A DNA stretch of 64,000 bases from a virus. Numbering within the stretch: position 1 is the stretch's first letter; every line of letters begins with the position of its first letter. Both the position numbers and the translations under genes were made by a program. Positions 686-58,789 of this stretch are shown here, piece by piece. The DNA is taken from positions 1-64,000 of the IMG/VR virus record IMGVR_UViG_3300043112_000063; one strand, written 5' to 3'. The notes beneath the pieces are model-generated. The model did no database searches and was not told where the DNA came from. It saw only the letters and a program-made list of their open reading frames with translations.

Positions 686-948
686 CCCCATAATTAGATA
701 AAGTGTACAAAATCCTTGATGTGACTTAGCGCAATTATCGACATAGGAGTTAGCGCAACTTTGAGGGTAGGACTTCACGCAATTGGAGTGACCGACCGAC
801 AGTATCTTTTAGTATTCTTTCAACTCACTAATACTTATCATTCACCTCACGACAAATATCCACAAAGAGAGCCTCATTTTCAAGTTTGATTGGCTCATTG
901 TCGAAAATGAAAACTTAATTGAAAAAATAAAATAATCACATTTACCCC

Positions 949-1078
949 TTGTAATTTCACCAATTATCACTTATAATGGGTATGTAAAGGTGGTAGAAGT
1001 CACGGTATTAAATAGTCAAAGATTATTTAAAACTTTTCACATTTACCCCTTGTAATTTCTTAATTATCGTGTTATAAT
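949..1078 (+). promoter_or_regulatory. Two tandem sigma-A promoters TTGTAA-17-TATAAT (949-977, 1050-1078)
   Basis: Both preceded by TCACATTTACCCC; exact 17-nt spacers. Confidence 0.8.
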
Positions 1079-1150
1079 TAAGTAACAAGGTAAGGTGGTC
1101 ACCTTAAAGTACCAACCAGACTGCAACCCAGTCACGAAAGGAGTTTCAAA

Positions 1151-1465
1151 ATGGCAAACAAGGTAAACAAAGTTAATCAAGATGTAGTAAAGGTAACGGT
1201 CAACGCTGTCAAGCCACAAATTACGTTCGTGAAACGTAAATTACACAAGTTCTTAAAATCAGAAAAGTTAGCGGCGAAATCAAGTACCCCTACCAAACCT
1301 GAAGCGGTCAAGTTAACCGAAGAACAAAGTAAAAAAGTGCAAGGCGTTATCAAAAGCGGACTTGAGGAAATGTCAACTAAATACGAACATACCACAAAAC
1401 CTCAAATCACGTACATCAAGAATCACTTCAATGTTCATACTAGTAAGTATTTAAAATCTGAGTAA
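1151..1465 (+). CDS. Small basic early protein; normal-composition paralogue of 3692-4015
   Basis: AAGGAG SD, tandem promoters, terminator; ~55% identical to 3692-4015 by manual alignment. Confidence 0.85.
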   Translation: MANKVNKVNQDVVKVTVNAVKPQITFVKRKLHKFLKSEKLAAKSSTPTKPEAVKLTEEQSKKVQGVIKSGLEEMSTKYEHTTKPQITYIKNHFNVHTSKYLKSE

Positions 1466-1474
1466 CATAAAAAA

Positions 1475-1500
1475 CGGGGTCGTAATTGACCCCTTTTTTA
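1475..1500 (+). terminator. Intrinsic terminator GGGGTC-gtaatt-GACCCC-T6
   Basis: Hairpin plus T tract after the stop codon. Confidence 0.8.
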
Positions 1501-1919
1501 TTTGTTTATTTTTGTTCACGCTTGACAAACTCATGGTCGAAAATGAAAATCGGAGTGAGACGACTCAAGGAGAAATTGAGCAAAAAGTGAGGTACGAGAT
1601 AGCGCAACGAAATGGTCACAGGGGTAGGCACTGACCGCCGACCCCGTAGGTTCCGAAGGAGATATCGTGTCAGATGTGACGTACCAGTTAGCGCAACTTC
1701 ACGGTTGTCAGTTAGCGCAATTGGTCGGACTCACCGATGAAATTATCCTTATCGAAAATGAAAACCTTGACTTCACATTAGATATAGTGGTGTTATTAGT
1801 TGCTATTTTCAAGGTCGACCCCGATGGTGTCATAGTCGAAAATGAACGTTTTTGCTACACTAAATCGTATTTTCCACCATTTTCTGTAGTGAAAACTTTA
1901 ATATTTTCACATTTACCCC

Positions 1920-1948
1920 TTGTAAAAACCCCAATAATCAATTATAAT
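1920..1948 (+). promoter_or_regulatory. Sigma-A promoter TTGTAA-17-TATAAT
   Basis: Same TCACATTTACCCC-TTGTAA context as 949 and 1050. Confidence 0.8.
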
Positions 1949-2007
1949 GGGTGTATAAGGTTGGTGGTAAACCAAAAACCACATTATCACATAAAGGAGT
2001 GTCGTAT

Positions 2008-2394
2008 ATGAAACAAGTTAACAATTTTGTAACAAGTAATCAAGTAGGTAGTAGTAAACAAGTAACAGTTGAACAAGGTGTAAACTACTTAATAAAGTGC
2101 CCATTTGACGTAAAAAGTAACACAATTTTACCCACACCTAATAACCCTGAAAGTGTAAGTTGGTTTATTAAAAACAATGGTAACATAGTCAGTTTTGAAT
2201 TTATACCTAAAGGTTTATACAATCAACAAAACCCAGTATGTGAAATTACCATAGTTGACCAACAAACACATAACAAGTTTAAAGGTGAAATTACCACATA
2301 TGACAGTTTAGGTTTCATGGATGACCTGTTATTAAATGTCAAACAAGAAACAGGGTTAGTGTTACAATATGATTGTTTTGGTAACCCACAGTAA
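2008..2394 (+). CDS. Hypothetical early protein (128 aa, no Ala or Arg)
   Basis: ATG at 2008 after AAGGAG; followed by a terminator. Confidence 0.8.
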   Translation: MKQVNNFVTSNQVGSSKQVTVEQGVNYLIKCPFDVKSNTILPTPNNPESVSWFIKNNGNIVSFEFIPKGLYNQQNPVCEITIVDQQTHNKFKGEITTYDSLGFMDDLLLNVKQETGLVLQYDCFGNPQ

Positions 2395-2401
2395 AACTGA
2401 A

Positions 2402-2431
2402 CAGGTGGTGTAAAAACCACCTTTTCTTTTT
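2402..2431 (+). terminator. Intrinsic terminator AGGTGG-tgtaaaaa-CCACCT-T tract
   Basis: Hairpin plus T tract. Confidence 0.75.
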
Positions 2432-2560
2432 TGGTAACATAGTATTCTTTTCTGAACTGACGACCTGAGCGCGCGGAGATTTAAGTAATTCTATGAGTTT
2501 AAGATAGAGAAGTGGAGATTTAGTCTAAAAAGAAAACATTAAAATAATCACTAAAAACTA

Positions 2561-2589
2561 TTTACATTTCCGTAATTATCAAGTATAAT
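2561..2589 (+). promoter_or_regulatory. Sigma-A promoter TTTACA-17-TATAAT
   Basis: Consensus spacing; followed by GGGTGTATAA as at 1943. Confidence 0.75.
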
Positions 2590-2664
2590 GGGTGTATAAA
2601 GGTGGTTAGGTTGTAGCAGATTTAAGCATTAGACCGACCACCTAAAATCAAAGGAGGAAAGATT

Positions 2665-2799
2665 ATGAAAAGTATTAGAGTATTTGTAGGAACATATCAA
2701 GATTGGAAAGACCTTATGGCTAAGGTGAAGAGACTCGGACTAGACCCGAGAGGTGTCACAGTTGGTACAATACCAGATATACTCGCATTTGAGGAGTAA
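2665..2799 (+). CDS. 44-aa protein MKSIRVFVGTYQDWKDLMAKVKRLGLDPRGVTVGTIPDILAFEE (not in the ORF track)
   Basis: AAGGAGG SD, own promoter, terminator-like hairpin at ~2803-2828. Confidence 0.75.
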   Translation: MKSIRVFVGTYQDWKDLMAKVKRLGLDPRGVTVGTIPDILAFEE

Positions 2800-3296
2800 A
2801 TAAAGGGGTCTTAGTCGACCTTTTTTTATTTATAGTTGTGTTATCGACACCGATAGACTCACAGTCGAAAATGAACACAAATGCGGATACGATTTAGCGC
2901 AACATTTTAGACCGACAAATGTCTCCACCGGAAGTGAACATATTAGTCCGTTGTTTTCAAGGTATGACTTAGCGCAACGATATGAACCGACCGATACAGA
3001 CCCACTAAATCATTGATACGAGATGGCGCAACTTTCGAGATACCAGATAGCGCAATTGTGCAAGAGTGACTTAGCGCAACGTTTTTCACCCGTCTCCACC
3101 GTCCACCCGTTCAATCAGGGTGGTGGTCTGGTCGTCATTTTCAAGTCAAAAAAAACACTACAACAGGGCCGTGTGTGTTGGTTTACTACAACGTCCCCGT
3201 GTGTGTTGGTTTTTATTTAAAAATAATTTTTAATAATGCACGTAAAATACCTAACATAACATACCCCCTATTTTGTTATGTAAATACTAAGGGGGG

Positions 3297-3626
3297 TTAA
3301 CCCCTTAATATTTTTTTAACGTTGTTATTGGTTAAATGGTTAATAATGGTTAATATTAAATAACGTTTGTATTGGTTTTTTGTAATACCGTTTAACTGTG
3401 TACTTTTTAATAAAGTGTTAACTTTTTTGTTTAAATAATTATAAATATAAATAACCTGTTTTTTTTGTGTTAACTTTTTAAGGTTGTTTGTGTGTGTGTT
3501 ATTTTTTAATGGTTTAAATAATTGGGTTAACCCTATTGTTTGGTTTATGGTTGTTTTTGTGTTTGTGTATAACTTGTTAAATTGTTTGTAATTGTTATAA
3601 TTAAAATTTTTTAAACTTACTAACAT
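3297..3626 (-). CDS. Basic 109-aa protein with no Asp, Glu or Ala
   Basis: Open frame; SD AAAGGGGGT just upstream of the ATG. Confidence 0.8.
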   Translation of the reverse strand: MLVSLKNFNYNNYKQFNKLYTNTKTTINQTIGLTQLFKPLKNNTHTNNLKKLTQKKQVIYIYNYLNKKVNTLLKSTQLNGITKNQYKRYLILTIINHLTNNNVKKILRG

Positions 3627-3691
3627 TTTTTACCCCCTTTAAAAATTAAGTTGTAAGGGGGTTTTGTGTACCCCCTTACTGTGTTACTTAA

Positions 3692-4015
3692 CTACTGTAA
3701 ATACTTAACTGTGTGTGTGTTTAAATGGTTTTTAATGTAGTTTAACTGTGGTTGTGTTGTGTGTGGGTATTTGGTTTTTAAACTATTTAAACCGTTTTTA
3801 ATAACTTTTTGTACCCCGTTTAACTGTGTTTGTGTTAAACCTTGTTTTACTTGTGGTTTTGTTGGCGTGTTGTTACTGTGTTGTAAGTTGTTACTTTTTA
3901 AATGTTTACTAATTAAACGTTTAATGTAAGTAACTTGTGGTTTTACTTGGTTAATTGTTACCTTAACCGTGTTACTATTTACCTTGTTAACCTTGTTTGT
4001 TACTGTGTTACCCAT
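3692..4015 (-). CDS. Basic 107-aa protein with no Asp, Glu or Ala; recoded paralogue of 1151-1465
   Basis: Shared blocks NKVNKVN, VKPQ, TPTKP, TKY.HTT.PQ, YIKNH; SD AAGGGGGT. Confidence 0.9.
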   Translation of the reverse strand: MGNTVTNKVNKVNSNTVKVTINQVKPQVTYIKRLISKHLKSNNLQHSNNTPTKPQVKQGLTQTQLNGVQKVIKNGLNSLKTKYPHTTQPQLNYIKNHLNTHTVKYLQ

Positions 4016-4087
4016 TATGTTACCCCCTTAAGTTGTAACCTTAACCCCCGTTTATACGGTGGGTGGTTGTTACTAACTTACATACCC

Positions 4088-4115
4088 ATTATACCAAAAA
4101 ATAGGGTTATTACAA
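4088..4115 (-). promoter_or_regulatory. Island promoter CCCCTTGTAA-16-TATAAT with extended -10 TG
   Basis: Same CCCCTTGTAA...TATAATGGGTATGTAA context as the promoter at 949. Confidence 0.75.
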
Positions 4116-4958
4116 GGGGGTATTTTACTTTTTTTTACTTTTGTTTTTTGTTTACTATTAAATACCCCGTTGTTTACACGTTTAAACGGTATAAAAAAAA
4201 TTAAAACTTTTTTTGTTTTTTATTAAATAACCCACTTTTGCGTATTTTTACCCCGTTTTTTGTACGTGGTTTATTTGGTATAAATACCCCCAAAAAGTAC
4301 CATTTACCCCGTTTAAAATGGCCCGTGTTAACGTTTTATTGGTTAACCGTTATATATACCACCGTTAACCGTTTAAACCGTTACAACGTAAATAACAACG
4401 TAATTATAAAAACATAACAAAACATTAAAATTGTTATGTATTACTTGTTACTACTACAACGGGTCCAGGTGTACCGTTAACGTGGGTACCTTTTTTTCAA
4501 AATGTAATAATACCATAAGGCAGAACCCATTAGAGCCCAATTTTTTACCCCCTACTGGATTTCAAGATATGCCCTAGATACAGGGAAGAATGGCTCACAA
4601 TGGTCTCCAAAAGCGGGAATGGTCCGCCTGGCGCCTCGGTTTTTTATCTGCAATAGTAAACACAGTAGGGTACTGGGGTATTTTTGAAATTGAAAAAAAG
4701 GACAACCCCAAGTTTTTAAAAGGCTGTCCTAATTTTTTATATAATTTTTTAGTTGTGTACTACAGATGAGCCACGTATGGATTATGTCAGGGACTATGTA
4801 CTCATCCTAAGCCACTACTTCATTTCTTCTACTATCTTTTTTAACTCTGGATTATCATCCAATAACTTTTCGTATATACTACTGGTCAAAAGAGTAAATT
4901 CTTGAAAATATAGAATACCACCACGAATATGATAATAAATAATAATTATTTATACTTA

Positions 4959-5207
4959 CTATAAATGGAAAGAGATTTTATTATAAGTTTTATCGATGTT
5001 CTCTTCAATGAAACCACTTTTTACAAAAGATTTTAAAATTGATGGTATTTTTTTTCTTAAACTAATGTCTGAAAAACTTTTATTAATTTCTTTTAGAGAT
5101 TTCTTTATCTCGCCCTCAGTAAATCTATCATTCTTAGTAAGAATTACACCATAAGTAAGAAACCCAAAATCAGCAGTCTTAGTCTTTTGATTCCCTTTTC
5201 TATCCAT
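4959..5207 (-). CDS. Hypothetical protein, possible winged-helix
   Basis: 82-aa ORF with GGGG SD. Confidence 0.55.
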   Translation of the reverse strand: MDRKGNQKTKTADFGFLTYGVILTKNDRFTEGEIKKSLKEINKSFSDISLRKKIPSILKSFVKSGFIEENIDKTYNKISFHL

Positions 5208-8337: not shown

Positions 8338-8937
8338 GTGACGTTAGTGGGGGAAAACAATAAAACTGAAAAAAGACAAGTAATTGATATAGAAACTAAC
8401 GAAACTATTTTAGTGGACGTAGATTCTAGTAAAATAATTTCTAAAGAAGACCAAGAGAAGAGAAGTTTAATTTATAGAAGAAAAGTAGAACCATATTTAA
8501 ACGATATTATTAAGTGGAGGCACGAAGGGAAAGGAACTACACAGATTTCAGAATTGTTAGACATTAGCCCTTCTTCTTTTTTGTTATATAGGAAAAACGT
8601 ACCAGAGTTAAAAGATGCTTGGGATTTAGGAACACAGTTATTAGGCGATTCTATTGAAAATTCTATGTTTAACGAAGCACAAGGGTACACATATCAAGAA
8701 GACGCCCTAACTAAAACAGGGAAGGTTGTTACGCTTAAGAAACACGCTAGAGGTAGTGTAACAGCGGCTAAACTTGTTTTACCAGTACTTAAACCTGCTA
8801 ATTACAAGAAAGATTACCAAGTAACAGGAGAAATTGGCGGAGTAACCTTGGAGGCTATTAAAGCCTTAACTAAAGAGGAGATAAGGAAGTTGTTAAAAGA
8901 TGGACAAGAAGAAGAGACCAAAGACGACAAAGAATAA
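8338..8937 (+). CDS. terS: Terminase small subunit
   Basis: HTH-like N-terminal region; immediately precedes terL. Confidence 0.7.
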   Translation: MTLVGENNKTEKRQVIDIETNETILVDVDSSKIISKEDQEKRSLIYRRKVEPYLNDIIKWRHEGKGTTQISELLDISPSSFLLYRKNVPELKDAWDLGTQLLGDSIENSMFNEAQGYTYQEDALTKTGKVVTLKKHARGSVTAAKLVLPVLKPANYKKDYQVTGEIGGVTLEAIKALTKEEIRKLLKDGQEEETKDDKE

Positions 8938-10852
8938 CGATATTCCTATTAACGAATTAGTAAAAAGTGAAATGTTTAAGGATTACGCCAAAACAATACT
9001 AGCAGAAAAGAGTTTAATGGACTTCACTAAACAAGCTTGGAGCATTATAGAGCCTGGCGTTGAGTTTAAAGATAACTGGCATTTACATTACTTAGAGGAA
9101 GAGTTATTACTTTTAGTAATTGATGATATAGAAAATATATTATTAGAAGAACATACACAGGAATACATAGACCATTTAAAGACAGATGTTTTTAATACAA
9201 GACTTAATATTAACATACCACCACGTACAATGAAATCATTATTTATCAATGTATTTTTCCCTTGTTGGGTTTGGATTCACAATCCATCTAAAAAATTCAT
9301 TACTGTATCTTATGCTAAAGATTTATCAATGAGTTTAAACCAAAAAAGACGGGAAATTATAGAAAGTGATTGGTATCAAAGTCGTTGGGGAGACCGTGTA
9401 AAATTAAAGGACGAACAGAACACAAAAACGTCATTTGAGAACACAAGACAGGGAATAATGTTCAGTACATCTATCGGCGGAACCTTGACTGGTAAGGGTG
9501 GAGATATTATTTTATTGGATAAGCAAAAGCTTGATTTTGGTCACTCCACAATAAATATTAAAGATTGTAAAATTGTCCCTTATATTAGAGATAATATTCG
9601 AATAACTATGTGAACGTATATAAAAACGGTGTTTCTACATAACAAAAAATAAGTAGAAGCTAACGGGGAAACCGTAATATTATAAATATCGGTAATTCCG
9701 TGCCAAGTACGAAGAATAAAACTCCGTAAAGGTGTATCGACTATTCCGAAAGGAAGTACAGTAGAGATTAATACTACTGGAAGCGCATAGCAACAGAAAT
9801 GTTGATGATATAGTCAGTACCATTAGTAATAATGGATAGATACGGATTTACAAAACCCAAAACAAGCAGAGTCAGAGGCAGATAGAAAATCAGCTATTAA
9901 CTTCTTTAGACAAACACTTCCTACACGTTTAAATGACTTTGAAAAAGGTATTATTGTTAACATACAGCAACGTTTACACTATAACGATGTTAGTGGCTTT
10001 ATTATAGAGAATTATGACCATTATAAAACCATAGTATTACCTTCCGAAACTTCAGAAGATAGATATTATGTATCACCAATTTCACAAAAAACACATAAAT
10101 ATAAATCTGGAACTGTTTTGTGGCCGAATAGAATGCCACCTAGTTGGATTAAAATGATTAAGAAAGAACAGGGTTCCAGAACATATAATGCACAGTTCTT
10201 ACAAGACCCTACACCACCTGGAGGATTCTTAATAAACACAGGTTGGTTTAGAAGATGGAAGAATTTACCTATATTTAACGAAGAATTAATGAAAAAGAGA
10301 AAAGACAAGTACAAAATAATTATGGCTTGGGATATGAACTTTAAAAAGAAAGTTGGCGCCGATAATGTTGCTTGTAGTGTTTTCTTAACAGATTTCGTTA
10401 CTACTTATCTTATAGATAAATTCGAAGAACAAGTAGGATTTATAGAAACTTTAGATGAAGTAACAAAAATGAAAGACAAATGGGAATTTATTTTGTTTAA
10501 ATCTAAAGTAAGTGTTCCTATAGAAATAATTATAGAGGACAAAGCAAACGGACCAGCAATTATGGAAGTACTTCAGTTAAAAATTCCTGGAATTCTTCCT
10601 ATTACACCAGTAGAAGATAAAGTAACTAGAATGACATCTATTACGACATTTATAGAAGCGGGAAATGTATTAGTACCGTCTTTAGATACAAGTGACGCAT
10701 TAGTAAAACATTCTTGGTTGCCTGACGCATTAGAAGAATTAGCAAAATTCCCTAATGTACAACACGATGACTTTTCGGATTCATTCTCTATTGGTTTAAG
10801 ACGTATTTATGTTGAACCATCGTCAAAAAGAAAACCTATGCGAATATTTTAA
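8900..10852 (+). CDS. terL: Terminase large subunit, join(8900..9520,9845..10852)
   Basis: Walker A PPRTMKS; splicing restores GGDIILLD/DLQNPK (Walker B); QQRLH motif; C-terminal FPNVQHDD. Confidence 0.92.
9521..9844 (+). mobile_element. Group I intron in terL (324 nt, no endonuclease ORF)
   Basis: 5' exon ends in U, intron ends in G; GCTAACGGGGAA, CGACTA and GATATAGTC core elements; removal restores the frame. Confidence 0.9.
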
Positions 10853-33727: not shown

Positions 33728-33804
33728 GGCTGTGTAGCCCAACTGGCAGAGGCGTTAGGCTTAGACCCTATACAGTGTGAGTTCGAATCTCACCACAGTC
33801 ACCA
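33728..33804 (+). tRNA. tRNA-Leu(TAG), short variable loop
   Basis: Cloverleaf, CCA encoded. Confidence 0.85.
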
Positions 33805-33824
33805 AAATAAAAAAGGAGTGTAAT

Positions 33825-34037
33825 ATGTCTAGAGAAATAGATTATGATTTAATAGAAAAGAATATTGAAACCGAAATATATTATCAAGATGATAAAATAA
33901 TTGATATTCTTTGGGATAGTCCATATGTAGGTTTTGGACATTTAACATTAGACAAGAACACAAAAGAAATAATTGATGATGAATTTATGTCTAAAGAATT
34001 TTGTGATATTGTTATTAAAAAAACGAAAGGAGTATAA
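33825..34037 (+). CDS. Hypothetical protein
   Basis: ATG after AAGGAG. Confidence 0.6.
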   Translation: MSREIDYDLIEKNIETEIYYQDDKIIDILWDSPYVGFGHLTLDKNTKEIIDDEFMSKEFCDIVIKKTKGV

Positions 34038-34145
34038 TATGGAAGATAGAACTTTATATCAATTATGTATTCAAGCCTTAAGATATGCTCGACAAAGAGA
34101 TAATCATTTAGCTCCAGCAGTCGCAGTTGATAATATAAAAGACGT

Positions 34146-34322
34146 ATGGTTGTTAGGCCCAATAAACAACAATTAGTAGAGGAAGTTCTTAGTATGGGAA
34201 TGAGCGCTACTGGTAGAAAATATGGTGTTACACTTCAATCAATAAGTAAGTGGTTATACAATTATAATTTACCACATAAATACAAAGATTTAAAAAAATT
34301 ATATATAGATACGGTGCTGTAG
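34146..34322 (+). pseudogene. Remnant HTH resembling the C-terminus of phage HNH homing endonucleases
   Basis: RPNKQQLVEEV...SATGRKYGVTLQSISKWL; no nuclease domain; stop codon falls inside tRNA-Asn. Confidence 0.45.
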
Positions 34323-34390
34323 CTAAACTGGTAAAGCGTCTGACTGTTAATCAGAAGATTCTGTGGGTTCGAGTCCCATCGGCACCGCCA
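34313..34390 (+). tRNA. tRNA-Asn(GTT)
   Basis: Cloverleaf, CCA. Confidence 0.9.
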
Positions 34391-34394
34391 ATAT

Positions 34395-34470
34395 GGTCGG
34401 GTAGCTCAGTAGGAAGAGCGGTAGGTTGAAGCCCTACGCGTCGCAAGTTCGATTCTTGTCTCGACCACCA
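34395..34470 (+). tRNA. tRNA-Phe(GAA)
   Basis: Cloverleaf, CCA. Confidence 0.9.
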
Positions 34471-34479
34471 ATAAAGGAA

Positions 34480-35256
34480 ATGATTGTTTTGAGAAAAAAA
34501 GCGTGGCAACGATTACTTAGAGAAAAAGTAAGTGAACAACTAAACGAAACAACAGAAGATAAAGCAAAACAAATACGAATAGAACCAGAGTTTGCGGAAG
34601 TTAAAGTAATAACAAACGAGTTAGCAAAAACTATTATATTACAGTATGAGTGGTTAAAGACAATGCCACCAGCGGCGTTCTTAAGTACAGGATTATTTAT
34701 TGACGGTGAGTTGGCTGGAGTAGAAGTTTTTGTTAGCGCTAAAGCTGGTGGACACTATACGTATTTAAAGGAACAAGCAACTGTTTTAGCAAGGGGAGCT
34801 TGTGTACATTGGGCTCCGAAATGGGCGAATTCCTATTTAGTTTCTAAATCATTAAAAATACTTAGGGATTATTACGAAGGAGAACCACGATATGTTCTCG
34901 CTTACAGTGATTGGGAAGCCGGAGAACTTGGTACTATTTATCAAGCAACAAACTGGACGTACACAGGACACAGAAAAGTTCCAGAATGGCGAGATAAAAA
35001 TGGTAAGCGTTATGACCAAAATAGACATAGGGATTTAGCGAAAAAATACGATAAAGACTATAAAAAAACCAAGAAACTAAACAAGAAATATGTCGATATG
35101 GTTTATCAACAATTACTAGATAAGGGATTTTATAGAAGTCATACATATAGAGGACGTTATGTTTATGTTATTGGCTATAAAGGAAAAGAAAAAAGTCGTT
35201 TACTCAAAAAATTAAACACGGTAAAAAAACCTTACCCAAAAAGTAATATTAAATAA
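34480..35256 (+). CDS. Mom-like (GNAT-fold) DNA modification protein
   Basis: NSYLVSKSL...LAYSD...GTIYQATNW motif; start moved past tRNA-Phe. Confidence 0.7.
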   Translation: MIVLRKKAWQRLLREKVSEQLNETTEDKAKQIRIEPEFAEVKVITNELAKTIILQYEWLKTMPPAAFLSTGLFIDGELAGVEVFVSAKAGGHYTYLKEQATVLARGACVHWAPKWANSYLVSKSLKILRDYYEGEPRYVLAYSDWEAGELGTIYQATNWTYTGHRKVPEWRDKNGKRYDQNRHRDLAKKYDKDYKKTKKLNKKYVDMVYQQLLDKGFYRSHTYRGRYVYVIGYKGKEKSRLLKKLNTVKKPYPKSNIK

Positions 35257-35270
35257 GAAAGGACTACACA

Positions 35271-35825
35271 ATGTTCACATCAATTACATATGGAAAATTA
35301 ACAAAAGAACAAGTGTTTATGAAGATACTTGAAAGAATAGAACAAATAAAACGAAATGGTTATGAATATGAAATTGCTGTTGGAACAGATAGTCAAACAT
35401 ATAGAAAAACTAACATTGTAAGAAGTATAGTACTATTAGAAAAAACACACGGTGGAATATACTTTAGTAGTAAGAAAAGAATAAAAAGATTTAATGACCT
35501 ACAACCTAAAATATATGCTGAGGTTTCTGAAACACTAACTTTAGCAGATGAGTTAAGAACGTTTTTAAAAGAAAAAGGTTTTTCAACCGAAGAAATAATT
35601 GATAATTTAGTTGTAGATTTAGATATTGGTAGTAATGGTTTAACTTGTGATTTTATTCAGGGAATAACTGGTTGGGTAAAGGCTTATGGATTTAAGTTTA
35701 GATTAAAACCTTCTAGTGTTGCTGCAAGTAGAGTTTCTGATAAATTAAGTAAACGTGGAGCAGATTCAACTACAATAAAACCACACATAAGACCAAAAGA
35801 TAAAAGAAAAAAGAGTAAAAAGTAG
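35271..35825 (+). CDS. RNase H-like YkuK (DUF458) family protein
   Basis: AVGTDSQ, HGGIYF, DIGSNG, KPSSVAAS motifs. Confidence 0.8.
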   Translation: MFTSITYGKLTKEQVFMKILERIEQIKRNGYEYEIAVGTDSQTYRKTNIVRSIVLLEKTHGGIYFSSKKRIKRFNDLQPKIYAEVSETLTLADELRTFLKEKGFSTEEIIDNLVVDLDIGSNGLTCDFIQGITGWVKAYGFKFRLKPSSVAASRVSDKLSKRGADSTTIKPHIRPKDKRKKSKK

Positions 35826-35862
35826 AGTACCACTTCGCGCAATTACACTACTTTTTATAGAT

Positions 35863-35936
35863 GCGGGTGTCGTCTAATGGTAGGGCCTAAGACTTCCAAT
35901 CTTAAGATAGGGGTTCGATTCCCCTCACCCGCTCCA
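35863..35936 (+). tRNA. tRNA-Gly(TCC)
   Basis: Cloverleaf, U73, CCA. Confidence 0.9.
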
Positions 35937-36136
35937 TTAACTTATAGTGTCCGATTATTCGGAATATACGTTCTACGTTAAGTAGACACATAAGACTCAC
36001 TGTCCGCCCATTTGAAAAATGAAGACAGTGCAAAAACCAAGTTGGCACAGATAGAGGTGTTGTATGTGGTTTCCGTTAATACGCGAACAACGGTTTGACA
36101 TACAAGATATGGATTCGCGCCCATATTCCACAATAG

Positions 36137-36215
36137 GCTGGAGTAGCTCAAATGGTGGCAGAGCAACTGACTTGTAATCAGTAGGTTGTAGGTTCGATTC
36201 CTATCTCCAGCACCA
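36137..36215 (+). tRNA. tRNA-Thr(TGT)
   Basis: Cloverleaf, CCA. Confidence 0.9.
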
Positions 36216-36395
36216 TTATAAAACAAGACCCGGCAGTTTACCGCTTACCTTTTGATAGCGAACGATAATGTAAACTTATTGGTGACTGTGGGCATTAATA
36301 AAAGAATTAAGCAACAAAGTAATTAGTAATAAGTAGTAACCCTATCTTATATAATTAGTTTGAAGTTTAGTAATATAGGAATAGGAGGAAATAAT

Positions 36396-36593
36396 TTGAA
36401 CGGTACAGTAAAATGGTTTAATGCAGAAAAAGGATACGGATTCATCACCGATGAAGAAGGTAACGATATTTTTGCACACTACTCTGCTATCCAAATGGAT
36501 GGATACAAAGCGTTATCTGAAGGACAAGAAGTTACATTTGATGTTGTAGAAGGACAACGTGGACCACAAGCAGATAATATTAATTTAGTTTAA
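36396..36593 (+). CDS. cspA: Cold-shock protein
   Basis: [15 protein letters not shown]; TTG start after AGGAGG. Confidence 0.92.
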
Positions 36594-36625
36594 AAGATTG
36601 GGGAGCATACTTGCCCCCTTTATAT

Positions 36626-36702
36626 GTTGACTGTACGCTAATTGGAAAGCGGCTAGATTGTGGCTCTAGTGTAAGCGAGTTCGAACCTCGTCAGTCAACC
36701 CA
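36626..36702 (+). tRNA. tRNA-His(GTG)
   Basis: G-1:C73 pair; CCA. Confidence 0.9.
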
Positions 36703-36705
36703 TAT

Positions 36706-36779
36706 TGTAGTGTAGCTCAACGGCAGAGCAGTCGGCTGATAACCGACAGATGGAAGTTCAATTCTTCTCACTACAACCA
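36706..36779 (+). tRNA. tRNA-Ile(GAT)
   Basis: Cloverleaf, CCA. Confidence 0.88.
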
Positions 36780-37048
36780 TTTTGAAAATAAAACAGGAGT
36801 ATCCCTACCTTAGTGGGAACGATAAGACGGTAGTGGTGACGACAGCCCAGCTTTGGCGACCTAGTTACTAGGTTAAAAGAAAAATAGAAGCATGTTATTC
36901 TAGGGCTTGACCCTAGAGTCACTGCTATATTAGCTCGTCTGCCACGTGTAGACAGAGATATTACTTTATCATAAAAGTAGAGTTTTATGGTTTAGTACGG
37001 GAACAGTAAGTCAAAGTGAGTCTGCAGTAAACTTTGCAATTCCCATTC

Positions 37049-37125
37049 GGACCTTTAGCTAAATTGGTCACAGCAGTCGGCTCATAACCGAAAGATTGCG
37101 AGTTCGAGTCTCGTGAGGTCCACCA
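37049..37125 (+). tRNA. tRNA-Ile2(CAT), lysidine type
   Basis: GGACCTT acceptor stem like Bacillota Ile2. Confidence 0.75.
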
Positions 37126-37268
37126 AAAAAGATGATAGATTTGAGATAACATCAAATAGTCTATATATAAAAACTGGGGACGTTGATAGCGTAGTTAAGT
37201 TCAAAGCCCATTTCACCCTAAACTTTGTTTAAAGACTAAACGGGAGGGTGCTCGTTTCCCCTAGAGAA

Positions 37269-37343
37269 CGCACAGTAGCTCAATGGCTGAGCAACACTTT
37301 CATACGGTGTAGGATGCTGGTTCGAGTCCAGTCTGTGCGACCA
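37269..37343 (+). tRNA. tRNA-Met(CAT), elongator
   Basis: Cloverleaf, CCA. Confidence 0.75.
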
Positions 37344-37422
37344 AAAGAAAAATATAAATAGGCTCTTTACTTTTAGAGCCAAATGTGGTATAATATTTAT
37401 AGTAAAAACAATTTATATGTAT

Positions 37423-37496
37423 GGGGCTGTGATGTAATGGAAACATAGGAGTGTTGCATACTTCTTATGGCGGTTCGAATCCGCTCAGCTCCACCA
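37423..37496 (+). tRNA. tRNA-Ala(TGC)
   Basis: G3:U70; CCA. Confidence 0.88.
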
Positions 37497-37520
37497 AAAA
37501 TAGAAAGTAGTTGACTATTT

Positions 37521-37994
37521 GTGCCAAAACTGTCCGTTATTTGTTACCAATGTGGTAAAGAATTCTATAGAGAACGTCGAAAAATAAAAAAGTATAATTT
37601 TTGTAGTATAGAATGTTCTGGAAAAAACAGAAGAAAAAGAATGAAAATTAATTGTTCTTATTGCGGTAAAGAATTTGAAATACTAATTAACAAGTATATA
37701 AATTCTAGAAATAAGAAATTCTTCTGTGTGAGGAAGTGTAAAGATAACGCGCAAAGACTTAATAGTGATAATCCGTGTTTAGAAATACGTCCAAAACATT
37801 ATGGTACTGGAACAAATATTAATTATCGAGATTTAGCAATAAGTAATAATGGTGCTCGATGTGAACGTTGTGGATACGAAGAAAATATAAATGGGTTAGT
37901 CGTTCATCATAGAAATAAAAATAGAGAGGATAACAACTTAGGTAATTTAGAAGTTCTATGTGGAACTTGTCACCTAATAGAGCATTATAGTTAA
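37521..37994 (+). CDS. HNH endonuclease with N-terminal zinc-finger repeats
   Basis: CxxCGKEF repeats; VHHRNKNREDNNLGNLEVLCGTCH. Confidence 0.85.
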   Translation: MPKLSVICYQCGKEFYRERRKIKKYNFCSIECSGKNRRKRMKINCSYCGKEFEILINKYINSRNKKFFCVRKCKDNAQRLNSDNPCLEIRPKHYGTGTNINYRDLAISNNGARCERCGYEENINGLVVHHRNKNREDNNLGNLEVLCGTCHLIEHYS

Positions 37995-38004
37995 TTATTT
38001 ATAC

Positions 38005-38080
38005 GGACACGTAGCTCAACTGGAAGAGCATCTGTTTTACAAGCAGAAGGTTGTAGGTTCAAGTCCTATCGTGTTCACCA
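38005..38080 (+). tRNA. tRNA-Val(TAC)
   Basis: Cloverleaf, CCA. Confidence 0.9.
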
Positions 38081-38227
38081 ACAATTAAATAAAACAAGGT
38101 TTACCCCGATTCCTTATAAAAAAATCGGGGCGTGGTGGTAACATTCAGAAGATAAGGTAAGCTTAAAGTAATTTTAAAAACTCCCTTATCTTACTAAAGA
38201 CCTAAGCTTATAGGGTCTTTAGGTTAT

Positions 38228-38303
38228 CGAGGTGTAGCTCAGTAGGAAGAGCGCCTGGTTTGGGACCAGGAGGCCGTAGGTTCGAGACCTATCACTTCGA
38301 CCA
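38228..38303 (+). tRNA. tRNA-Pro(TGG)
   Basis: Cloverleaf, CCA. Confidence 0.9.
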
Positions 38304-38349
38304 TTTATAAATTATGTTGCGCTTGTTGAAAAGCTTGTGTGACTCTCGA

Positions 38350-38425
38350 GGTTCTGAGGTGTAATTGGATGCATGTCTGGTTGTCAGCCAGGAGGAAGCG
38401 GGTTCGAACCCCGTCTGGACCGCCA
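38350..38425 (+). tRNA. tRNA-Asp(GTC)
   Basis: Cloverleaf, G73, CCA. Confidence 0.85.
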
Positions 38426-38710
38426 TTAAAAAATTACCGAGTATTACGGTTAGAATATAGTACACGAGGAAGATAATGATAGCATTAGTATTACGACAAT
38501 ATTTATATTTGAGTTCTTACTGGTTATGCTCAGAGTCTGAAAAAAGACAATCTTTTTATCGTGGGTTAATGTTGGTGTAATCACACCGATTTATTTATTA
38601 CCTACGACATTTATAATCGTAGGTTTTTTATTTTGTAGGTAGAAGGCGTATATCTACGGATATACAAGTGTTGTCACACACTTAACCACTGACGAGTGGT
38701 AGTGACATTT

Positions 38711-38795
38711 GGCGTTGAGGACGATATAGGTCGAGTCGCAGGGCTTTCAACCCTGTTCATATGTTAAGTGGGTTCGATTCCCATCAACGTCACCA
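38711..38795 (+). tRNA. tRNA-Glu(TTC), atypical with 12-nt variable region
   Basis: CAGGG-CTTTCAA-CCCTG anticodon arm; T arm; CCA. Confidence 0.75.
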
Positions 38796-38799
38796 ATAC

Positions 38800-38889
38800 G
38801 GAGGATTAGTCAAACGGTTACGACAGCGGCTTGCTAAGCCGTCAAGTCCCGAAAGGGATGTGCAGGTTCGAGTCCTGTATCCTCCGCCA
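38800..38889 (+). tRNA. tRNA-Ser(GCT)
   Basis: Class II cloverleaf, G73. Confidence 0.9.
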
Positions 38890-39025
38890 GATAGTTAACA
38901 ACAAAATATTCAAGGGATAGCACTGCTGGCCACAGGAAAGTAAACCCAAGTATAGTTGAGTAAACTCGAGATGACATCCTCATTGAATTGGGAATAGTGA
39001 ATTATTTGAATATTTTGTTTATTAT

Positions 39026-39100
39026 AGGAGTGTAGCCAAATGGAAAGGCACTTGACTTTGAATCAAGTAATTGGAGGTTCGAATCCTCTCACTCCCACCA
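39026..39100 (+). tRNA. tRNA-Gln(TTG)
   Basis: Cloverleaf with 1-72 mismatch; CCA. Confidence 0.85.
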
Positions 39101-39240
39101 AAAAATTAATAATACAAGAAGTTATCGAAACGAGTGTTTAGTAAAGTGGTCAATACTTGTACACCAAAACAAGCACACCATTTGAAAGACACGAGGAGTA
39201 AATAGTGTTGGATTGGTAATCCTGAACTTGTATTATATAT

Positions 39241-39329
39241 GGGGATGCGACAACGATGGCGTGTTGTAACAGGCTGTAACCCTGTCGCCTTAACGGGCTT
39301 AGTAGGTTCGAATCCTATCATCCTCACCA
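39241..39329 (+). tRNA. tRNA-Tyr(GTA)
   Basis: Class II cloverleaf. Confidence 0.88.
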
Positions 39330-39332
39330 TAC

Positions 39333-39408
39333 AGGAGTGTAGTTCAATTGGTAGAACGTTGGTCTCCAAAACCAAATGTTGCAGGTTCGAGTCCTGTCAT
39401 TCCTGCCA
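39333..39408 (+). tRNA. tRNA-Trp(CCA)
   Basis: Cloverleaf, G73. Confidence 0.9.
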
Positions 39409-39430
39409 TTATAATACGAAAGGAACTAAA

Positions 39431-39862
39431 ATGATAGACGAGTTTAGAAAAGAATACAGTTTTTTGAGTAACTTTTATACAGTACCGCTAGTATATAAGG
39501 GTCTTGGTTATCCAAGTGCTGAGAACGCATTCCAAGCACAAAAATCAACGGAAGAATATCATAAGTTTGCATTTACACACATTACTCCAAAAGAAGCAAA
39601 ACAATTAGGTAAGCGAGTTCCATTAAGAAGAGATTGGGAAAGAATAAAAGATACCATAATGTATGAAATATGTAAAGAAAAGTTTAAGAATAAAGAATTA
39701 AGAAAACGCCTACTCGATACTGGTAGTGAGCCTTTAAAAGAAGGAAACTACTGGCATGATACTTACTGGGGCGTATCCTTAAAAACTGGTAAGGGACTAA
39801 ATAAACTTGGGAATATTTTAATGCAGATTAGGGAGGAAATACGTGAAGGAGAGATTACGTAG
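39431..39862 (+). CDS. NADAR (YbiA-like) family protein
   Basis: FLSNFY, SAENAFQAQK, DTYWG, GLNKLGNILMQIR; start moved past the tRNAs. Confidence 0.9.
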   Translation: MIDEFRKEYSFLSNFYTVPLVYKGLGYPSAENAFQAQKSTEEYHKFAFTHITPKEAKQLGKRVPLRRDWERIKDTIMYEICKEKFKNKELRKRLLDTGSEPLKEGNYWHDTYWGVSLKTGKGLNKLGNILMQIREEIREGEIT

Positions 39863-40214
39863 AATAAAAGAATTAACTAAACATAAAGTAGCATTTTTTA
39901 AATACGAAAAGAAAATACTTGGTAAACACACTCTTAGAGGGCTAACACACGATTTAGATAAGTTACTGTTATACCTAACACCCTTACCGATAAAATACGT
40001 TAGAGCGCGACATAAAGCCCGTGCTAGACACCATAATCCAACTACAACTAGAGATTATGAGGAGAAACTTGTTGATTATGAGTGTGCTAGGTTTACAAAA
40101 AGAAATAGTAAATTAACAGCAATACAATACATAAAGAAAAAATATCCTTATGAGAAAAATATACACAGAATAACTCTGTTAGCATTAGCTCAATATTACG
40201 GACTAAAGGAGTAG
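39843..40214 (+). CDS. HD-domain-like protein
   Basis: THDLDK...RHH...DYEC. Confidence 0.55.
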   Translation: MKERLRRIKELTKHKVAFFKYEKKILGKHTLRGLTHDLDKLLLYLTPLPIKYVRARHKARARHHNPTTTRDYEEKLVDYECARFTKRNSKLTAIQYIKKKYPYEKNIHRITLLALAQYYGLKE

Positions 40215-40219
40215 ATTAG

Positions 40220-42139: not shown

Positions 42140-42141
42140 TT

Positions 42142-51477: not shown

Positions 51478-52239
51478 ATGGATAGATTACCAGTAGCAGA
51501 AACATTTGGACCTACAATCCAAGGAGAAGGAAATTACGCAGGCAAAAAAGTTTTATTTATTAGATTTGCAGGCTGTGATTTTAGGTGTAGCTGGTGTGAT
51601 AGTAAATACACACACGTTATTACCAATGAAACAGAGTGGTTAAGTACTGAGGCTTTAATAAATAGAGTTAGAGCACTTAATGGAGAAGGCGTTTTTGGAA
51701 AAGGAAGAAAATGCGACCACATTATTTTAACTGGTGGAAACCCTGCTTTGTATAACTTAGATAAGTTTATTGATGGACTTCATAAAATGAATATGTTTGT
51801 TCATATAGAAACACAAGGTACTAAGTTTCCAGAGTGGCTACATAAGGTAGATAATGTTGTATTTTCACCAAAGGCTCCAAGTAGTAAGATGGAAGTTGAC
51901 CAACAAGATGTTGCAGAAAAGATTAATGATTTTGCTAAGAATAGAGAATTAGACGAAAACAAACACGTTATTGTTAAGATTCCTATTTTTGACGACATTG
52001 ATTACGATTGGGCAAAAGAATTTCATAGGTATTTAGATATGAGATTAATCGACCATTATTTCTTATCTGTAGGTAATAGTAATTTCAAACCAACAGATAC
52101 AAAAGACGTCATTGTTAGTGGACTTTTAGATAGTTACGATTGGCTTGTTCAAAAAGTACAAAACGATAGTTACTATAAAGATGTTTCCGTGCTACCACAA
52201 ATTCACACGTTGCTATGGGGCAACAAGATAGGAGTATAA
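51478..52239 (+). CDS. queE: 7-carboxy-7-deazaguanine synthase
   Basis: TIQGEG, CDFRCSWCDS radical-SAM motif, PQIH. Confidence 0.93.
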   Translation: MDRLPVAETFGPTIQGEGNYAGKKVLFIRFAGCDFRCSWCDSKYTHVITNETEWLSTEALINRVRALNGEGVFGKGRKCDHIILTGGNPALYNLDKFIDGLHKMNMFVHIETQGTKFPEWLHKVDNVVFSPKAPSSKMEVDQQDVAEKINDFAKNRELDENKHVIVKIPIFDDIDYDWAKEFHRYLDMRLIDHYFLSVGNSNFKPTDTKDVIVSGLLDSYDWLVQKVQNDSYYKDVSVLPQIHTLLWGNKIGV

Positions 52240-52249
52240 AAAGATAAAT

Positions 52250-52933
52250 ATGGATGATGTGAAAAGAAGAATTAAGTTGGAACCAAAACAAAAAGAAAAA
52301 CTTTTAGTTGCTGGAAAAGGAAGAATTTTAGAGCAGGAACTAGAGGAAATCGAAACGGATATTTTACCGTCTATTTATAGACTTATGGAAATGTGTGGTG
52401 GAGACCCTTCCGGAAACGGACAAAAGGATACACCATATAGAGTTGCAAAAGCCTGGATGGAAATGTCTGAGGGTTACACAGAAGACCCAAGAGAACATCT
52501 CAACACTTCGTTTGATTTAGATGACGGAGATAAGGAAATTGAGAAAGACGAGGACGATTTAGTAATTGTAGAAAACATTACTATTAAAAGTGTATGTGAA
52601 CATCATATCTTACCGTTCATTGGAACAGTAGATATTGGTTACATACCAAAAACAAAGGTATTAGGACTTAGTAAGTTTGCACGTTTAGTTAGAGGGTATG
52701 CAAGTAGATTCCAAATACAAGAGAAACTTGGTGCTCAGATTGCTAAGGCGATTATGGAAGAAGCAGACGCTAAGGGCGTAATTGTAAAAATAAACGCAGT
52801 TCATACTTGTATGATAGCACGTGGTGTTAGAGAAAAAAATTCTAATACAGTTACCGTTGCTGTTAGAGGTGTGTTTAAAGAAGATAAGATGTTAGAACAA
52901 AAATTCTTAACTGCAACAGGAGGAAACAGATGA
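52250..52933 (+). CDS. folE: GTP cyclohydrolase I
   Basis: CEHHILPF, GLSKFAR, QIQE, HTCMIARG. Confidence 0.95.
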   Translation: MDDVKRRIKLEPKQKEKLLVAGKGRILEQELEEIETDILPSIYRLMEMCGGDPSGNGQKDTPYRVAKAWMEMSEGYTEDPREHLNTSFDLDDGDKEIEKDEDDLVIVENITIKSVCEHHILPFIGTVDIGYIPKTKVLGLSKFARLVRGYASRFQIQEKLGAQIAKAIMEEADAKGVIVKINAVHTCMIARGVREKNSNTVTVAVRGVFKEDKMLEQKFLTATGGNR

Positions 52934-53382
52934 TTTTTGGAAAAAGTTATGTAACAAAAGAATTTACATTTGATGCTATGCATCAGTTACCCAACCACGA
53001 CGGATTATGTAAAAACCACCACGGACACACTTACAAACTACAAGTTACCGTTACGGGTCTTATAGATACAAATGAAGGCAAGGCTTCTGAAGGTATGATT
53101 TATGATTTTGGACATTTAAAGAAACTTGTTAAAGAGTTAGTTTTAAATAAGATGGACCACGCATTTTTGGCTAAAGGCGATGAGGAAATACTTCCTGAAA
53201 TAAAAAGACTTGGAACACGTGTTTGTGTAATGGGAGTTAGAACAACAGCTGAAAATATGTCAAAGTATATTTTTGAATTATTATCACCACAATTACCGAA
53301 AAATGTTTACTTAAAAAATGTTAGATTGTATGAAACACCAACTAGCTGGGCTGACTATACTTTAAGTGACCCAACTAAATAA
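52930..53382 (+). CDS. queD: 6-carboxytetrahydropterin synthase
   Basis: FDAMH, CKNHHGHTY, TAEN, ETP. Confidence 0.95.
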   Translation: MIFGKSYVTKEFTFDAMHQLPNHDGLCKNHHGHTYKLQVTVTGLIDTNEGKASEGMIYDFGHLKKLVKELVLNKMDHAFLAKGDEEILPEIKRLGTRVCVMGVRTTAENMSKYIFELLSPQLPKNVYLKNVRLYETPTSWADYTLSDPTK

Positions 53383-56898: not shown

Positions 56899-57175
56899 TA
56901 AAGTAATTAAAAAGATTAAAAGTTTACATAAATTAGTTACTCCTACTTTTAGAGAATACGAAACAGAACTTAAAACCTTTATTAGTCGGTATGGATATGA
57001 TGCGGACACATTTAAAATAATGGATACTATGTGGCACATAATTGTTTATGAAAAAGAAACACGGACATTATGTGCCGTCATTAAAGTTGGCTTTAGAGGT
57101 AAGGAACATTGTACGACGTATAATGTTAAATTGTATATGAAGGAGAAGACTATTGAAAAAGATTTTATTGTATAG
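56879..57175 (+). CDS. Hypothetical protein
   Basis: ORF overlapping its neighbours. Confidence 0.55.
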   Translation: MLMNKHNKVIKKIKSLHKLVTPTFREYETELKTFISRYGYDADTFKIMDTMWHIIVYEKETRTLCAVIKVGFRGKEHCTTYNVKLYMKEKTIEKDFIV

Positions 57176-57887
57176 TGGCGGACTCGATTCTTGGCTAATT
57201 AATAAAATATGGAAACCAGATATTAAGATATATGTTGATATTAATGGTGCATATAGTAAAGAAGAGATTTCAAAGCTGCCAGAAGATGTAATTGTAGAAA
57301 AATTAGATTTAGGAAAATGGGAGCTACCTAATAAAATAATCCCAATGAGAAACTTATATTTCTTAATGGTAGCAAGCAATTACGCTAAAGACGACAAGTA
57401 CGAACAGTACGAAATATGTCTAGGGGCAACAGCTGGAGACCGTGTACTTGATAAAAGCGTTGAATTTGCAGATAAAGTAACTGATTTATTCAACTATTTA
57501 TACCAAGAACAATGGTGGACTAAACAAAAACACTTTAGAATAAATCTCGATTTTAAAGATTACACAAAAGGAGATTTATTAGAACAATACTTAACTATGA
57601 ACGGTACTTTAGAAGAGGCTTGGGAAAGTAGTTTTAGTTGTTATAATCCACAAGAAGACGGTACAGAATGCTGGTCTTGTAAACCTTGTTTCCGTAAGTT
57701 TGTTACATTTTATATGGAAGGTATGACATTCGATAAGGAAAAAGAAGTTCGTATTTTAAACTACTTAGAAAAAAATATCATTCCAAAAATAAAAAGTGGT
57801 TCTTATGGACGTGGAAAAAAAGAAGAAGGAGATATTGTGACTGTTTACGAACACTTACGTTCTAAGTATCACAATATAAAAGCGTAA
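57153..57887 (+). CDS. queC: 7-cyano-7-deazaguanine (preQ0) synthase
   Basis: LYSGGLDS, IPMRN, SCY...CWSCKPC. Confidence 0.88.
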   Translation: MKKILLYSGGLDSWLINKIWKPDIKIYVDINGAYSKEEISKLPEDVIVEKLDLGKWELPNKIIPMRNLYFLMVASNYAKDDKYEQYEICLGATAGDRVLDKSVEFADKVTDLFNYLYQEQWWTKQKHFRINLDFKDYTKGDLLEQYLTMNGTLEEAWESSFSCYNPQEDGTECWSCKPCFRKFVTFYMEGMTFDKEKEVRILNYLEKNIIPKIKSGSYGRGKKEEGDIVTVYEHLRSKYHNIKA

Positions 57888-58789
57888 TGGGAAAGTTTAA
57901 TACCTACTATGCCGGGATACAGTGTCCTGAGGCCGACGAGTATATAAACGAGCACGGCTTATTAAGGTTATTAAGTTATTGGAATGATAAAAAAATGTTT
58001 GAAAAAAGATGCAAAGAAGGTCTAAAAACATTTTTAGATAGTGGTGCGTTTACAGCGTGGACTAAGAACACAGAAGTTGATATTGATGAGTATATTGAAT
58101 ATGTTAATAAGTGGGACGATGGAATAGACCATTTTATTCAGGTCGATGAAATTCCAGGAAAAAAAGGATACACACCAACACCAAAAGAAAGACTAGCGTC
58201 TAACCAAGTTACTTGGAATAATTATCTTTATATGAGAGAACGTGTAAAAAGTCCTGACAAATTAGTTCCTGTTTTTCACGCTGGTTCAGATATTAATATA
58301 CTAAGAAGATTACTTGAGTTCGAACCAAAAATAGACATGATTGCTATTGGTAACATTGTTGGAAAAACAAAAGCGGAAAAAGAAGCTAAGTTAGAAGTTA
58401 TATTTAATGAAATAACTAGAAGTAGTAACCCAGATGTTAAGATACACGCATTGGGAGTTCAAGATTTTAAATTAAGTGAAAAGTTTCCTCTTTATAGTGC
58501 CGATGCAAGTAGTTGGATAATGGTTAGCGCAAACGGTGGAATAATGAGTGAGTTTGGACCTATATTAGTAAGTGAGAAAAGTACGGAAAAGAAAAACCAC
58601 TATGAAAACCAATCACCGCCAGTCAAAGAAAAAATAGATGAGTTCATTTCTAAATATGGTTACACATACGAAGAGTTAAGTAAGGACTATAAGAAAAGAA
58701 CCTTATTTAATATTAAGTGGTTGGACGAAAGAAGTAAAAACTATGTTTGCAAGTATCACTTACGTAAAAAGAAAAACACACTATTTTAG
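57887..58789 (+). CDS. dpdA: DpdA-like (TGT-fold) DNA guanine transglycosylase
   Basis: FLDSGAFT, VPVFH, IHALG, SADASSW; clustered with the que genes. Confidence 0.8.
   Translation: MGKFNTYYAGIQCPEADEYINEHGLLRLLSYWNDKKMFEKRCKEGLKTFLDSGAFTAWTKNTEVDIDEYIEYVNKWDDGIDHFIQVDEIPGKKGYTPTPKERLASNQVTWNNYLYMRERVKSPDKLVPVFHAGSDINILRRLLEFEPKIDMIAIGNIVGKTKAEKEAKLEVIFNEITRSSNPDVKIHALGVQDFKLSEKFPLYSADASSWIMVSANGGIMSEFGPILVSEKSTEKKNHYENQSPPVKEKIDEFISKYGYTYEELSKDYKKRTLFNIKWLDERSKNYVCKYHLRKKKNTLF

Follow-up and report, generated by a model that had tools for sequence, protein, structure and literature searches.

The window analysed here is a 64,000-bp stretch of DNA, comprising bases 1–64000 of the single 102,045-bp contig of an uncultured phage (IMG/VR record IMGVR_UViG_3300043112_000063). 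Close to its left end lies an island of 1270 bp, on the minus strand of which the sequence predicts a complete early expression cassette, with a promoter, two genes and terminators, as listed in Table 1. The dinucleotides GA and TC do not occur anywhere in the island, and GC is almost absent. Both of the encoded proteins, of 107 and 109 amino acids (aa), lack Asp, Glu and Ala entirely and have AGT as their only serine codon, and the Shine–Dalgarno sequences read GGGGG, not GGAGG. Markov simulations built on the di- or trinucleotide statistics of the island gave two open reading frames (ORFs) of at least 107 aa in 0 of 2000 runs. The AlphaFold2 model of the 107-aa protein consists of three helices, with a predicted local distance difference test (pLDDT) score of 84. 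Neither protein has a match in PHROG, Rfam identifies no family in the island, and the region 2500–5200 of the window has no DNA similarity to GenBank phages. The non-coding DNA upstream of the promoter is made up in part of short repeats, AACGGGGTA and TTTTTTGTTT..TATTAAATA..CCC motifs. The ACTACAAC repeats at the left edge have a third, weaker copy at the right edge (4453–4480); we considered them as a conserved recombination site and rejected this, because they are missing at the island edges of related phages.

Table 1. Features of the purged cassette, of the genes to its left and of the preQ0 pathway, in window coordinates.
Feature	Position	Strand	Basis or remark
Ordinary paralog of the 107-aa gene, 104 aa (8 Glu, 1 Asp, 5 Ala)	1151..1465	+	behind two tandem promoters
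Semi-purged gene	2003..2394	+	promoter at 1920-1948
28-nt ACTACAAC... repeats, two in tandem, left edge of island	3157..3212	+	
Island with 0 GA, 0 TC, 4 GC	3195..4464	.	dinucleotide counts
GGGGTTAACCCC hairpin and T run, predicted terminator, 3' end of cassette	3288..3307	.	
109-aa orphan gene	3297..3626	-	
GA-free ribosome binding site of 109-aa gene	3631..3639	-	AAGGGGGTAA type
10-bp hairpin between the two genes	3653..3679	-	terminator- or attenuator-like
107-aa gene	3692..4015	-	recoded paralog of gene 1151-1465
GA-free ribosome binding site of 107-aa gene	4020..4029	-	AAGGGGGTAA
Promoter ACCCCC-TTGTAA-N16-(TG)TATAAT-GGGTATGTAA	4088..4115	-	one of 8-copy early promoter family
GA/TC-free non-coding stretch upstream of promoter, ~350 bp	4116..4464	-	
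queE, folE, queD (preQ0 synthesis)	51478..53382	+	Pfam
queC and dpdA (DNA guanine transglycosylase; candidate writer of the mark)	57153..58789	+	Pfam (queC), phrog_887 (dpdA)

From the base composition of the island itself (565 T, 343 A, 196 G and 166 C), 52.9 GA, 73.9 TC and 25.6 GC would be expected. A recount gave 0, 0 and 4, confirming the first-pass annotation of this DNA, which had reported no GA on either strand and four GC. The residual GC steps are at 3238, 3865, 4240 and 4321, two of the four being part of GGC; apart from these, the base after G is always G (46) or T (146) and the base before C is always A (92) or C (69), with AC/GT, AA/TT and CC/GG enriched. The island is the longest GA/TC-free run of the 102,045-bp genome, the runner-up being 93 bp long, and gaps of 1270 bp would be expected 10^-56 times at the genome's rate of GA/TC. 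Genome-wide, GA is at expectation (4547 observed versus 4580). Counts in the flanks and ORFs likewise bear out what that annotation had said of sharp edges and of coding and non-coding DNA: there are 22 GA/TC in 3001–3200, 11 in 4401–4600 and zero between, the largely non-coding flanks (2395–3194 and 4465–4960) have normal GA/TC density, and the absence covers both genes (3297–3626 and 3692–4015) and the non-coding DNA of the island. An assembly artefact is excluded, since independent assemblies of related phages carry islands that obey the same rule.

The purge is strand-symmetric and acts at the dinucleotide level. That 1270 bp have lost all GA/TC and nearly all GC suggests that whatever reads these steps does so in double-stranded DNA and recognises two bases. 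A constraint on the RNA, by which the transcript dodges an endoribonuclease (RegB-like, GGAG) or a Rho loading signal, would fit the replacement of GGAGG in the ribosome binding sites and an mRNA devoid of GA and UC. However, GA, its complement TC and the self-complementary GC have all been lost, the purge includes some 350 bp upstream of the promoter as well as DNA past the terminator, and the persistence of CC pairs means that Rho-type YC sites stay. We therefore consider an origin at the RNA level very unlikely.

The 107-aa protein is 56% identical (E 8e-36) to the product of an ordinary twin gene in the same window. Codon alignment of the two shows synonymous recoding from twin to island (TCA to AGT, ATC to ATT, GGA to GGT, GTC to GTA), and at Glu positions of the twin the island copy carries Gln, Asn, Thr or Pro. 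Many kinds of substitution contribute (G>A 24, T>A 16, C>A 16, A>G 14, and others), and this mixed spectrum, together with the multi-step synonymous switches, means that a deaminase, or any other single mutational process, fails to explain the island. Between the twin and the island lies a gene (2003–2394) that is only partly purged: it contains a 317-bp run without VGA/TCB (log10 of the expected number, −6.9), 16 of its 18 GA/TC are TGA/TCA, compared with 27% genome-wide, and it has one GC. This pattern is kept in the homologs of the gene in two related stretches (L003 and L005). The tolerance of TGA/TCA suggests that the reader is less sensitive to GA when it is preceded by T.

Relatives were drawn from viral and metagenome collections. 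Islands following the same rule (GA, TC and GC close to zero, AC/GT and CC/GG enriched) were found in eight related stretches, representing at least five distinct relatives. The island of L004, which is the same as L001, L006 and L017, is 1.96 kb long with one exception to the rule; L003, L005 and L016 have further islands, as does L008, where there are several segments with other orphan genes. The complete 108-kb genome G001 has its island at 93461–94400, with the ordinary twin adjoining the island gene. The family to which the 107-aa protein belongs is rare (1.8 billion proteins include only 18 cluster representatives of it), and about one-third of its versions lack Asp, Glu and Ala. A search of genome contigs for the gene family found no match and thus no host clue, a P0009 search of viral contigs also gave no match, and in 918 kb of contigs around related terminases GA/TC-free runs were confined to close relatives.

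The island copies have dN/dS of 0.18–0.5 and saturated dS (1 or more), yet zero banned steps have arisen. Nine recoded copies group together as a clade in a maximum-likelihood tree; the recoded copy of G001 is sister to the ordinary copy of the same genome (support 96/93), against compositional attraction. From this placement it follows that recoding, or conversion followed by re-purging, has occurred at least twice. The purge was made by selection, not by mutation. A mutational process would have to be a context-specific hypermutation, such as a cytosine deaminase acting at TC/GC, or the erosion of a mutagenic modified G where constraint is weak. The enrichment of AC/GT, AA/TT and CC/GG, and proteins rich in Asn, Lys and Thr, would be in keeping with it, but the substitutions are mixed and include TCA to AGT rather than being C>T/G>A transitions only, the reading frames are intact and under purifying selection, the adjoining non-coding DNA is normal in GA/TC with sharp edges, and the GA content of the genome is at expectation. 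This explanation is largely refuted, and we give it hardly any credence.

L003 and L005 share a 2.3-kb flank that is 100% identical, whereas their islands are mosaic, 8–10% diverged and differ by indels, and both are still purged. Several further observations were made on these stretches. L003 (1–1040), L005 (1–1569) and L004 (9103–11085) form a recombination mosaic, in which the left flank of L003 recurs in L004 and its right flank in L005. The end of L004 matches the start of L005, suggesting one phage with two tandem islands, each with a recoded family gene. L005 also contains tandem TATAACTTTTT arrays. In the more distant L008, purged segments end at copies of GTTGAAA(C/T) (5852, 5886, 6685, 7250 and 7863); these segments hold three other orphan genes (162, 88 and 124 aa) with GA-free ribosome sites, and the family gene is not recoded there.

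The promoter of the cassette is one of eight near-identical early promoters of the form ACCCCTTGTAA-N16/17-TATAAT-GGGTATGTAA, which cluster around the contig junction: those at 949, 1050, 1920 and 4115 (minus strand) are in the window, and those at 94331, 94921, 96436 and 99782 (minus strand) are in the rest of the genome. Their −35 element is TTGTAA; TTGACA (as TTGACA-N17-TATAAT) occurs once genome-wide. The two tandem promoters of the twin (949–977 and 1050–1078) are of this type. A scan of viral contigs with the promoter pattern produced four chance matches only, none with an island. The first 103 nt of the contig match its last 109 nt, and a (TA)n microsatellite differs in length between the two ends (1–103 and 101937–102045), a sign that the assembly is circular or terminally redundant, with heterogeneity in repeat length. 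Since the ends overlap, the promoters outline a single early region that extends from about 94 kb across the junction as far as about 4.5 kb. An anti-restriction-like gene lies inside this region. We also note TTAGCGCAA-type boxes, in runs with 24-bp spacing, at 726–3079 of the window, with copies at 2969 and 3023–3079 immediately to the left of the island; these could serve the early region as operator or iteron arrays.

A second layer of sequence avoidance is seen across the genome as a whole. Several palindromes are strongly depleted (observed versus expected: GTATAC 0/22, GATC 2/202, AAATTT 2/56, GGTACC 1/11, CATG 30/237). Palindrome avoidance was rejected as the cause of the island, which is not depleted of short palindromes: it contains 8 GTTAAC (2.6 expected), 12 TTTAAA and 51 TTAA, AACGTT is also abundant, and one of the genome's two copies of AAATTT is inside it, at 3604. 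The abundance of GTTAAC and TTTAAA and the presence of AAATTT show that the island has no general proofing against restriction. In G001 the avoided set is partly different (GGTACC, GGCC and ACATGT), with GATC not strongly avoided, suggesting that the two phages have different hosts or different exposure to restriction-modification systems.

These counts bear on the proposal that the island is first-entering or otherwise unprotected DNA, like the first-step-transfer region of T5 or the leading end of T7, and avoids restriction sites containing GA/TC/GC or protospacer-adjacent motifs such as TTC. Its position in an early region with strong host-type promoters and an anti-restriction-like gene nearby is what would be expected of such DNA, and a hypervariable island between the near-identical flanks of L003 and L005 fits an arms-race locus. 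Against this, the avoidance of sites needs no erasure of a dinucleotide; the island is rich in GTTAAC, TTTAAA and AACGTT and retains a site avoided elsewhere in the genome; terS is 4 kb away in the window and 10 kb away in G001; and the assembly is circular and gives no physical ends. We regard this proposal as improbable.

The first-pass annotation had listed folE, queD, queE, queC and dpdA in this phage. The four pathway genes have Pfam matches, and DpdA (57887–58789) was identified by its match to phrog_887 (E 8e-51) and by its 29% identity to the characterised DpdA of CAjan (E 5e-33); it is 43% identical to the DpdA of Flasso, and Pfam reports no tRNA-guanine transglycosylase (TGT) match for it. 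A six-frame search found no ThyA-like enzyme, no C5, N6/N4 or Dam methyltransferase and no true QueF, the one weak match to the latter sitting within FolE. Judged from its predicted genes, the preQ0 pathway with DpdA is the only recognisable DNA-modification system in the genome. Both complete genomes, of the window phage and of G001, contain an island and DpdA, the two DpdAs being 65% identical, and a third sample, that of the island contig L017, has DpdA too (69% identity), on a separate contig.

In the Escherichia phage CAjan, DpdA places dPreQ0 at GA and GGC (PMC7544227), and in the Pseudomonas phage iggy the motif is strictly GA (PMC10484667). The insertion of deazaguanine is reported to be post-replicative (PMC10516641). 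DNA containing preQ0 is fragmented by the antiviral glycosylases Dag1 and Dag2, to an extent that scales with modification density (preprint 10.1101/2025.10.29.685425). Since the purged steps, GA and GC, fit the published class of DpdA motifs (PMC7544227, PMC10484667), the most economical reading is that the island is DNA without DpdA substrate. We put it at somewhat under an even chance that the island is an early cassette kept free of the target of the phage's own DpdA, G followed by A or C. Here we infer three things: the motif of DpdA, the unmodified state of the island and the benefit to the phage.

DpdA would replace G whenever the next base is A or C; both offer an amino group in the major groove, which would make such a specificity chemically coherent. 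The cassette would remain ordinary DNA while some 40% of the G in the genome carry dPreQ0. Being never marked nor visibly unmarked, it would escape every reader of the mark: host enzymes attacking deazaguanine (glycosylases or type IV nucleases), proteins that the mark obstructs, and phage weapons directed against unmarked GA/GC. In the version we prefer, the basic three-helix early protein, which the ordinary twin would also encode, would still be expressed from the cassette once modification-dependent defences of the host nick or block marked DNA, and under fragmentation by glycosylases the unmarkable cassette would stay transcribable. The whole transcription unit would be purged on both strands because harm would act wherever the mark sits. 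We suggest, more tentatively, that phages whose DNA is partially modified have a safe haven in a mark-free early cassette, recoded even in the amino acids that it uses, which works on when hosts attack or read modified DNA. It would then be possible to read the specificity of an uncharacterised DpdA (G then A/C, weaker after T) from genome sequence alone.

Several results weigh against this reading. The motif attributed to DpdA is one that we derive from the island itself, and two GGC persist there. GA/TC-free runs do not exceed 92 bp in CAjan, Flasso or the first 50 kb of Dp-1. The runs of 157–171 bp in iggy were rejected as a different phenomenon: they are low-complexity coding sequence, rich in Gln/Ala/Pro, with 70–74% GC and many GC steps. 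An island is thus absent from CAjan and iggy, both of them with known GA motifs, and from Flasso and this part of Dp-1, so that the link to DpdA is neither general nor necessary. The relatives compared include no dpdA-negative control. In the window genome, the median observed/expected ratio is 0.76 for markable palindromes (those with GA/TC/GC) and 0.85 for unmarkable ones (p 0.82), and in G001 the values are 0.83 and 0.88 (p 0.87). Markable palindromes are thus equally avoided, GATC being present 2 times versus 202 expected, and there is no sign of restriction relief at GA/GC; reliable marking at GA would make avoidance of GATC needless. The twin has the same type of promoter as the cassette, so a difference in timing is not evident. 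As to the function of the island proteins, the confident AlphaFold2 model has no significant fold match in PDB or BFVD, and the protein atlas yielded no usable match.

The idea in the first-pass annotation that the segment is free of the target of the phage's own modification is therefore upheld in part: the purge, the selection, the match in motif class and the single recognisable modifier favour it, while the palindromes give no sign of a protective mark at GA/GC. Its further idea, that host RNA polymerase needs unmodified DNA right after injection, is weakened, because the promoter type of the cassette also serves the twin and other early genes, which lie in DNA that contains GA, and because CAjan, iggy and Flasso do without islands.

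A different reader of the same steps is a serious rival, although we consider it unlikely. Here some host or phage factor would act on G with A or C after it (equivalently, on C with T or G before it), and the cassette would have to escape this factor with or without deazaguanine; it could be a nuclease or glycosylase, a protein that terminates transcription as Alc of T4 does, or some further DNA-binding weapon. The purge by itself calls only for some two-base reader of double-stranded DNA. GATC and further markable palindromes are still strongly avoided, there are further dpdA-positive phages without islands, and the tolerance of TGA/TCA with exclusion of VGA/TCB in the semi-purged gene amounts to a three-base preference that is unreported for DpdA. 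On the other side, no candidate factor was identified, the six-frame search found no second modification enzyme in the genome, and the match to the motif class of DpdA would have to be coincidence. Even if DpdA is not the reader, a conserved ban on two dinucleotides over an entire transcription unit demands a factor with two-base specificity.

Other features of the genome are noted for completeness. The large terminase is encoded in two ORFs about 500 bp apart (window 8900–9613 and 10118–10852), a split that is kept in L016, L017 and G001 and may reflect either an intervening element or a gene that truly has two parts. There are 25 tRNA genes and a tmRNA at 33728–43768 of the window. Two RNA ligases and a kinase plus HD phosphatase protein, outside the window (genome 66143–69942), form a tRNA-repair set like that of T4, which suggests pressure from anticodon nucleases. 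A DenV-like pyrimidine-dimer DNA glycosylase (PF03013) is encoded at 88792–89280 of the genome, on the minus strand, in a leftward gene block.

The island is real, conserved and selected, and is a feature for which we found no published counterpart; our literature searches agree in this with the first-pass annotation, which knew of no described system like it. The cassettes provide natural proteins that do without Asp, Glu and Ala under purifying selection and can each be compared with an ordinary twin, and the recurrent, independent recoding of one small basic protein points to a key early function. If the reading based on DpdA is true, it would explain how a phage balances protection from classical restriction against exposure to modification-dependent immunity, and would allow the motifs of DNA-modifying enzymes in uncultured viruses to be predicted from sequence only.

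The closest known systems are the dPreQ0 systems of CAjan and iggy, which have homologous DpdA, FolE, QueD, QueE and QueC, and whose motifs are of the same class as the purged GA and GC. They differ in having no motif-free island, and no motif-free cassette is described for either in the literature; the DpdA of the window phage is just 29% identical to that of CAjan, and its modification is predicted from genes. Dag1 and Dag2 are a documented selective pressure against carrying dPreQ0, the sole reported escape being loss of DpdA function, with local escape by motif-free DNA not described (10.1101/2025.10.29.685425). The avoidance of restriction sites in general resembles the purge in that selection leaves a DNA-reading enzyme no target and that a region of early genes is affected. 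The first-step-transfer region of T5 has no EcoRI sites, and the leading DNA of T7 is likewise site-free. The difference is that here a two-base word is fully erased, amino acids are forced out and one cassette only is involved; in this phage palindrome avoidance (GATC, GTATAC, AAATTT, GGTACC, CATG) is a separate, genome-wide layer that the island follows poorly. PBS2 counters the uracil-DNA glycosylase of its host with Ugi, and in T4 Alc and endonucleases tell cytosine from hydroxymethylcytosine DNA. We know of no system of the PBS2 or T4 type that uses a stretch of the genome without modifiable context. What these have in common with the island is that some functions must work whatever the chemistry of the phage DNA; they differ in acting through proteins, whereas the island, if our reading is true, would represent a new principle of counter-defence, a local exemption from the phage's own DNA modification that resides in sequence rather than in a protein.

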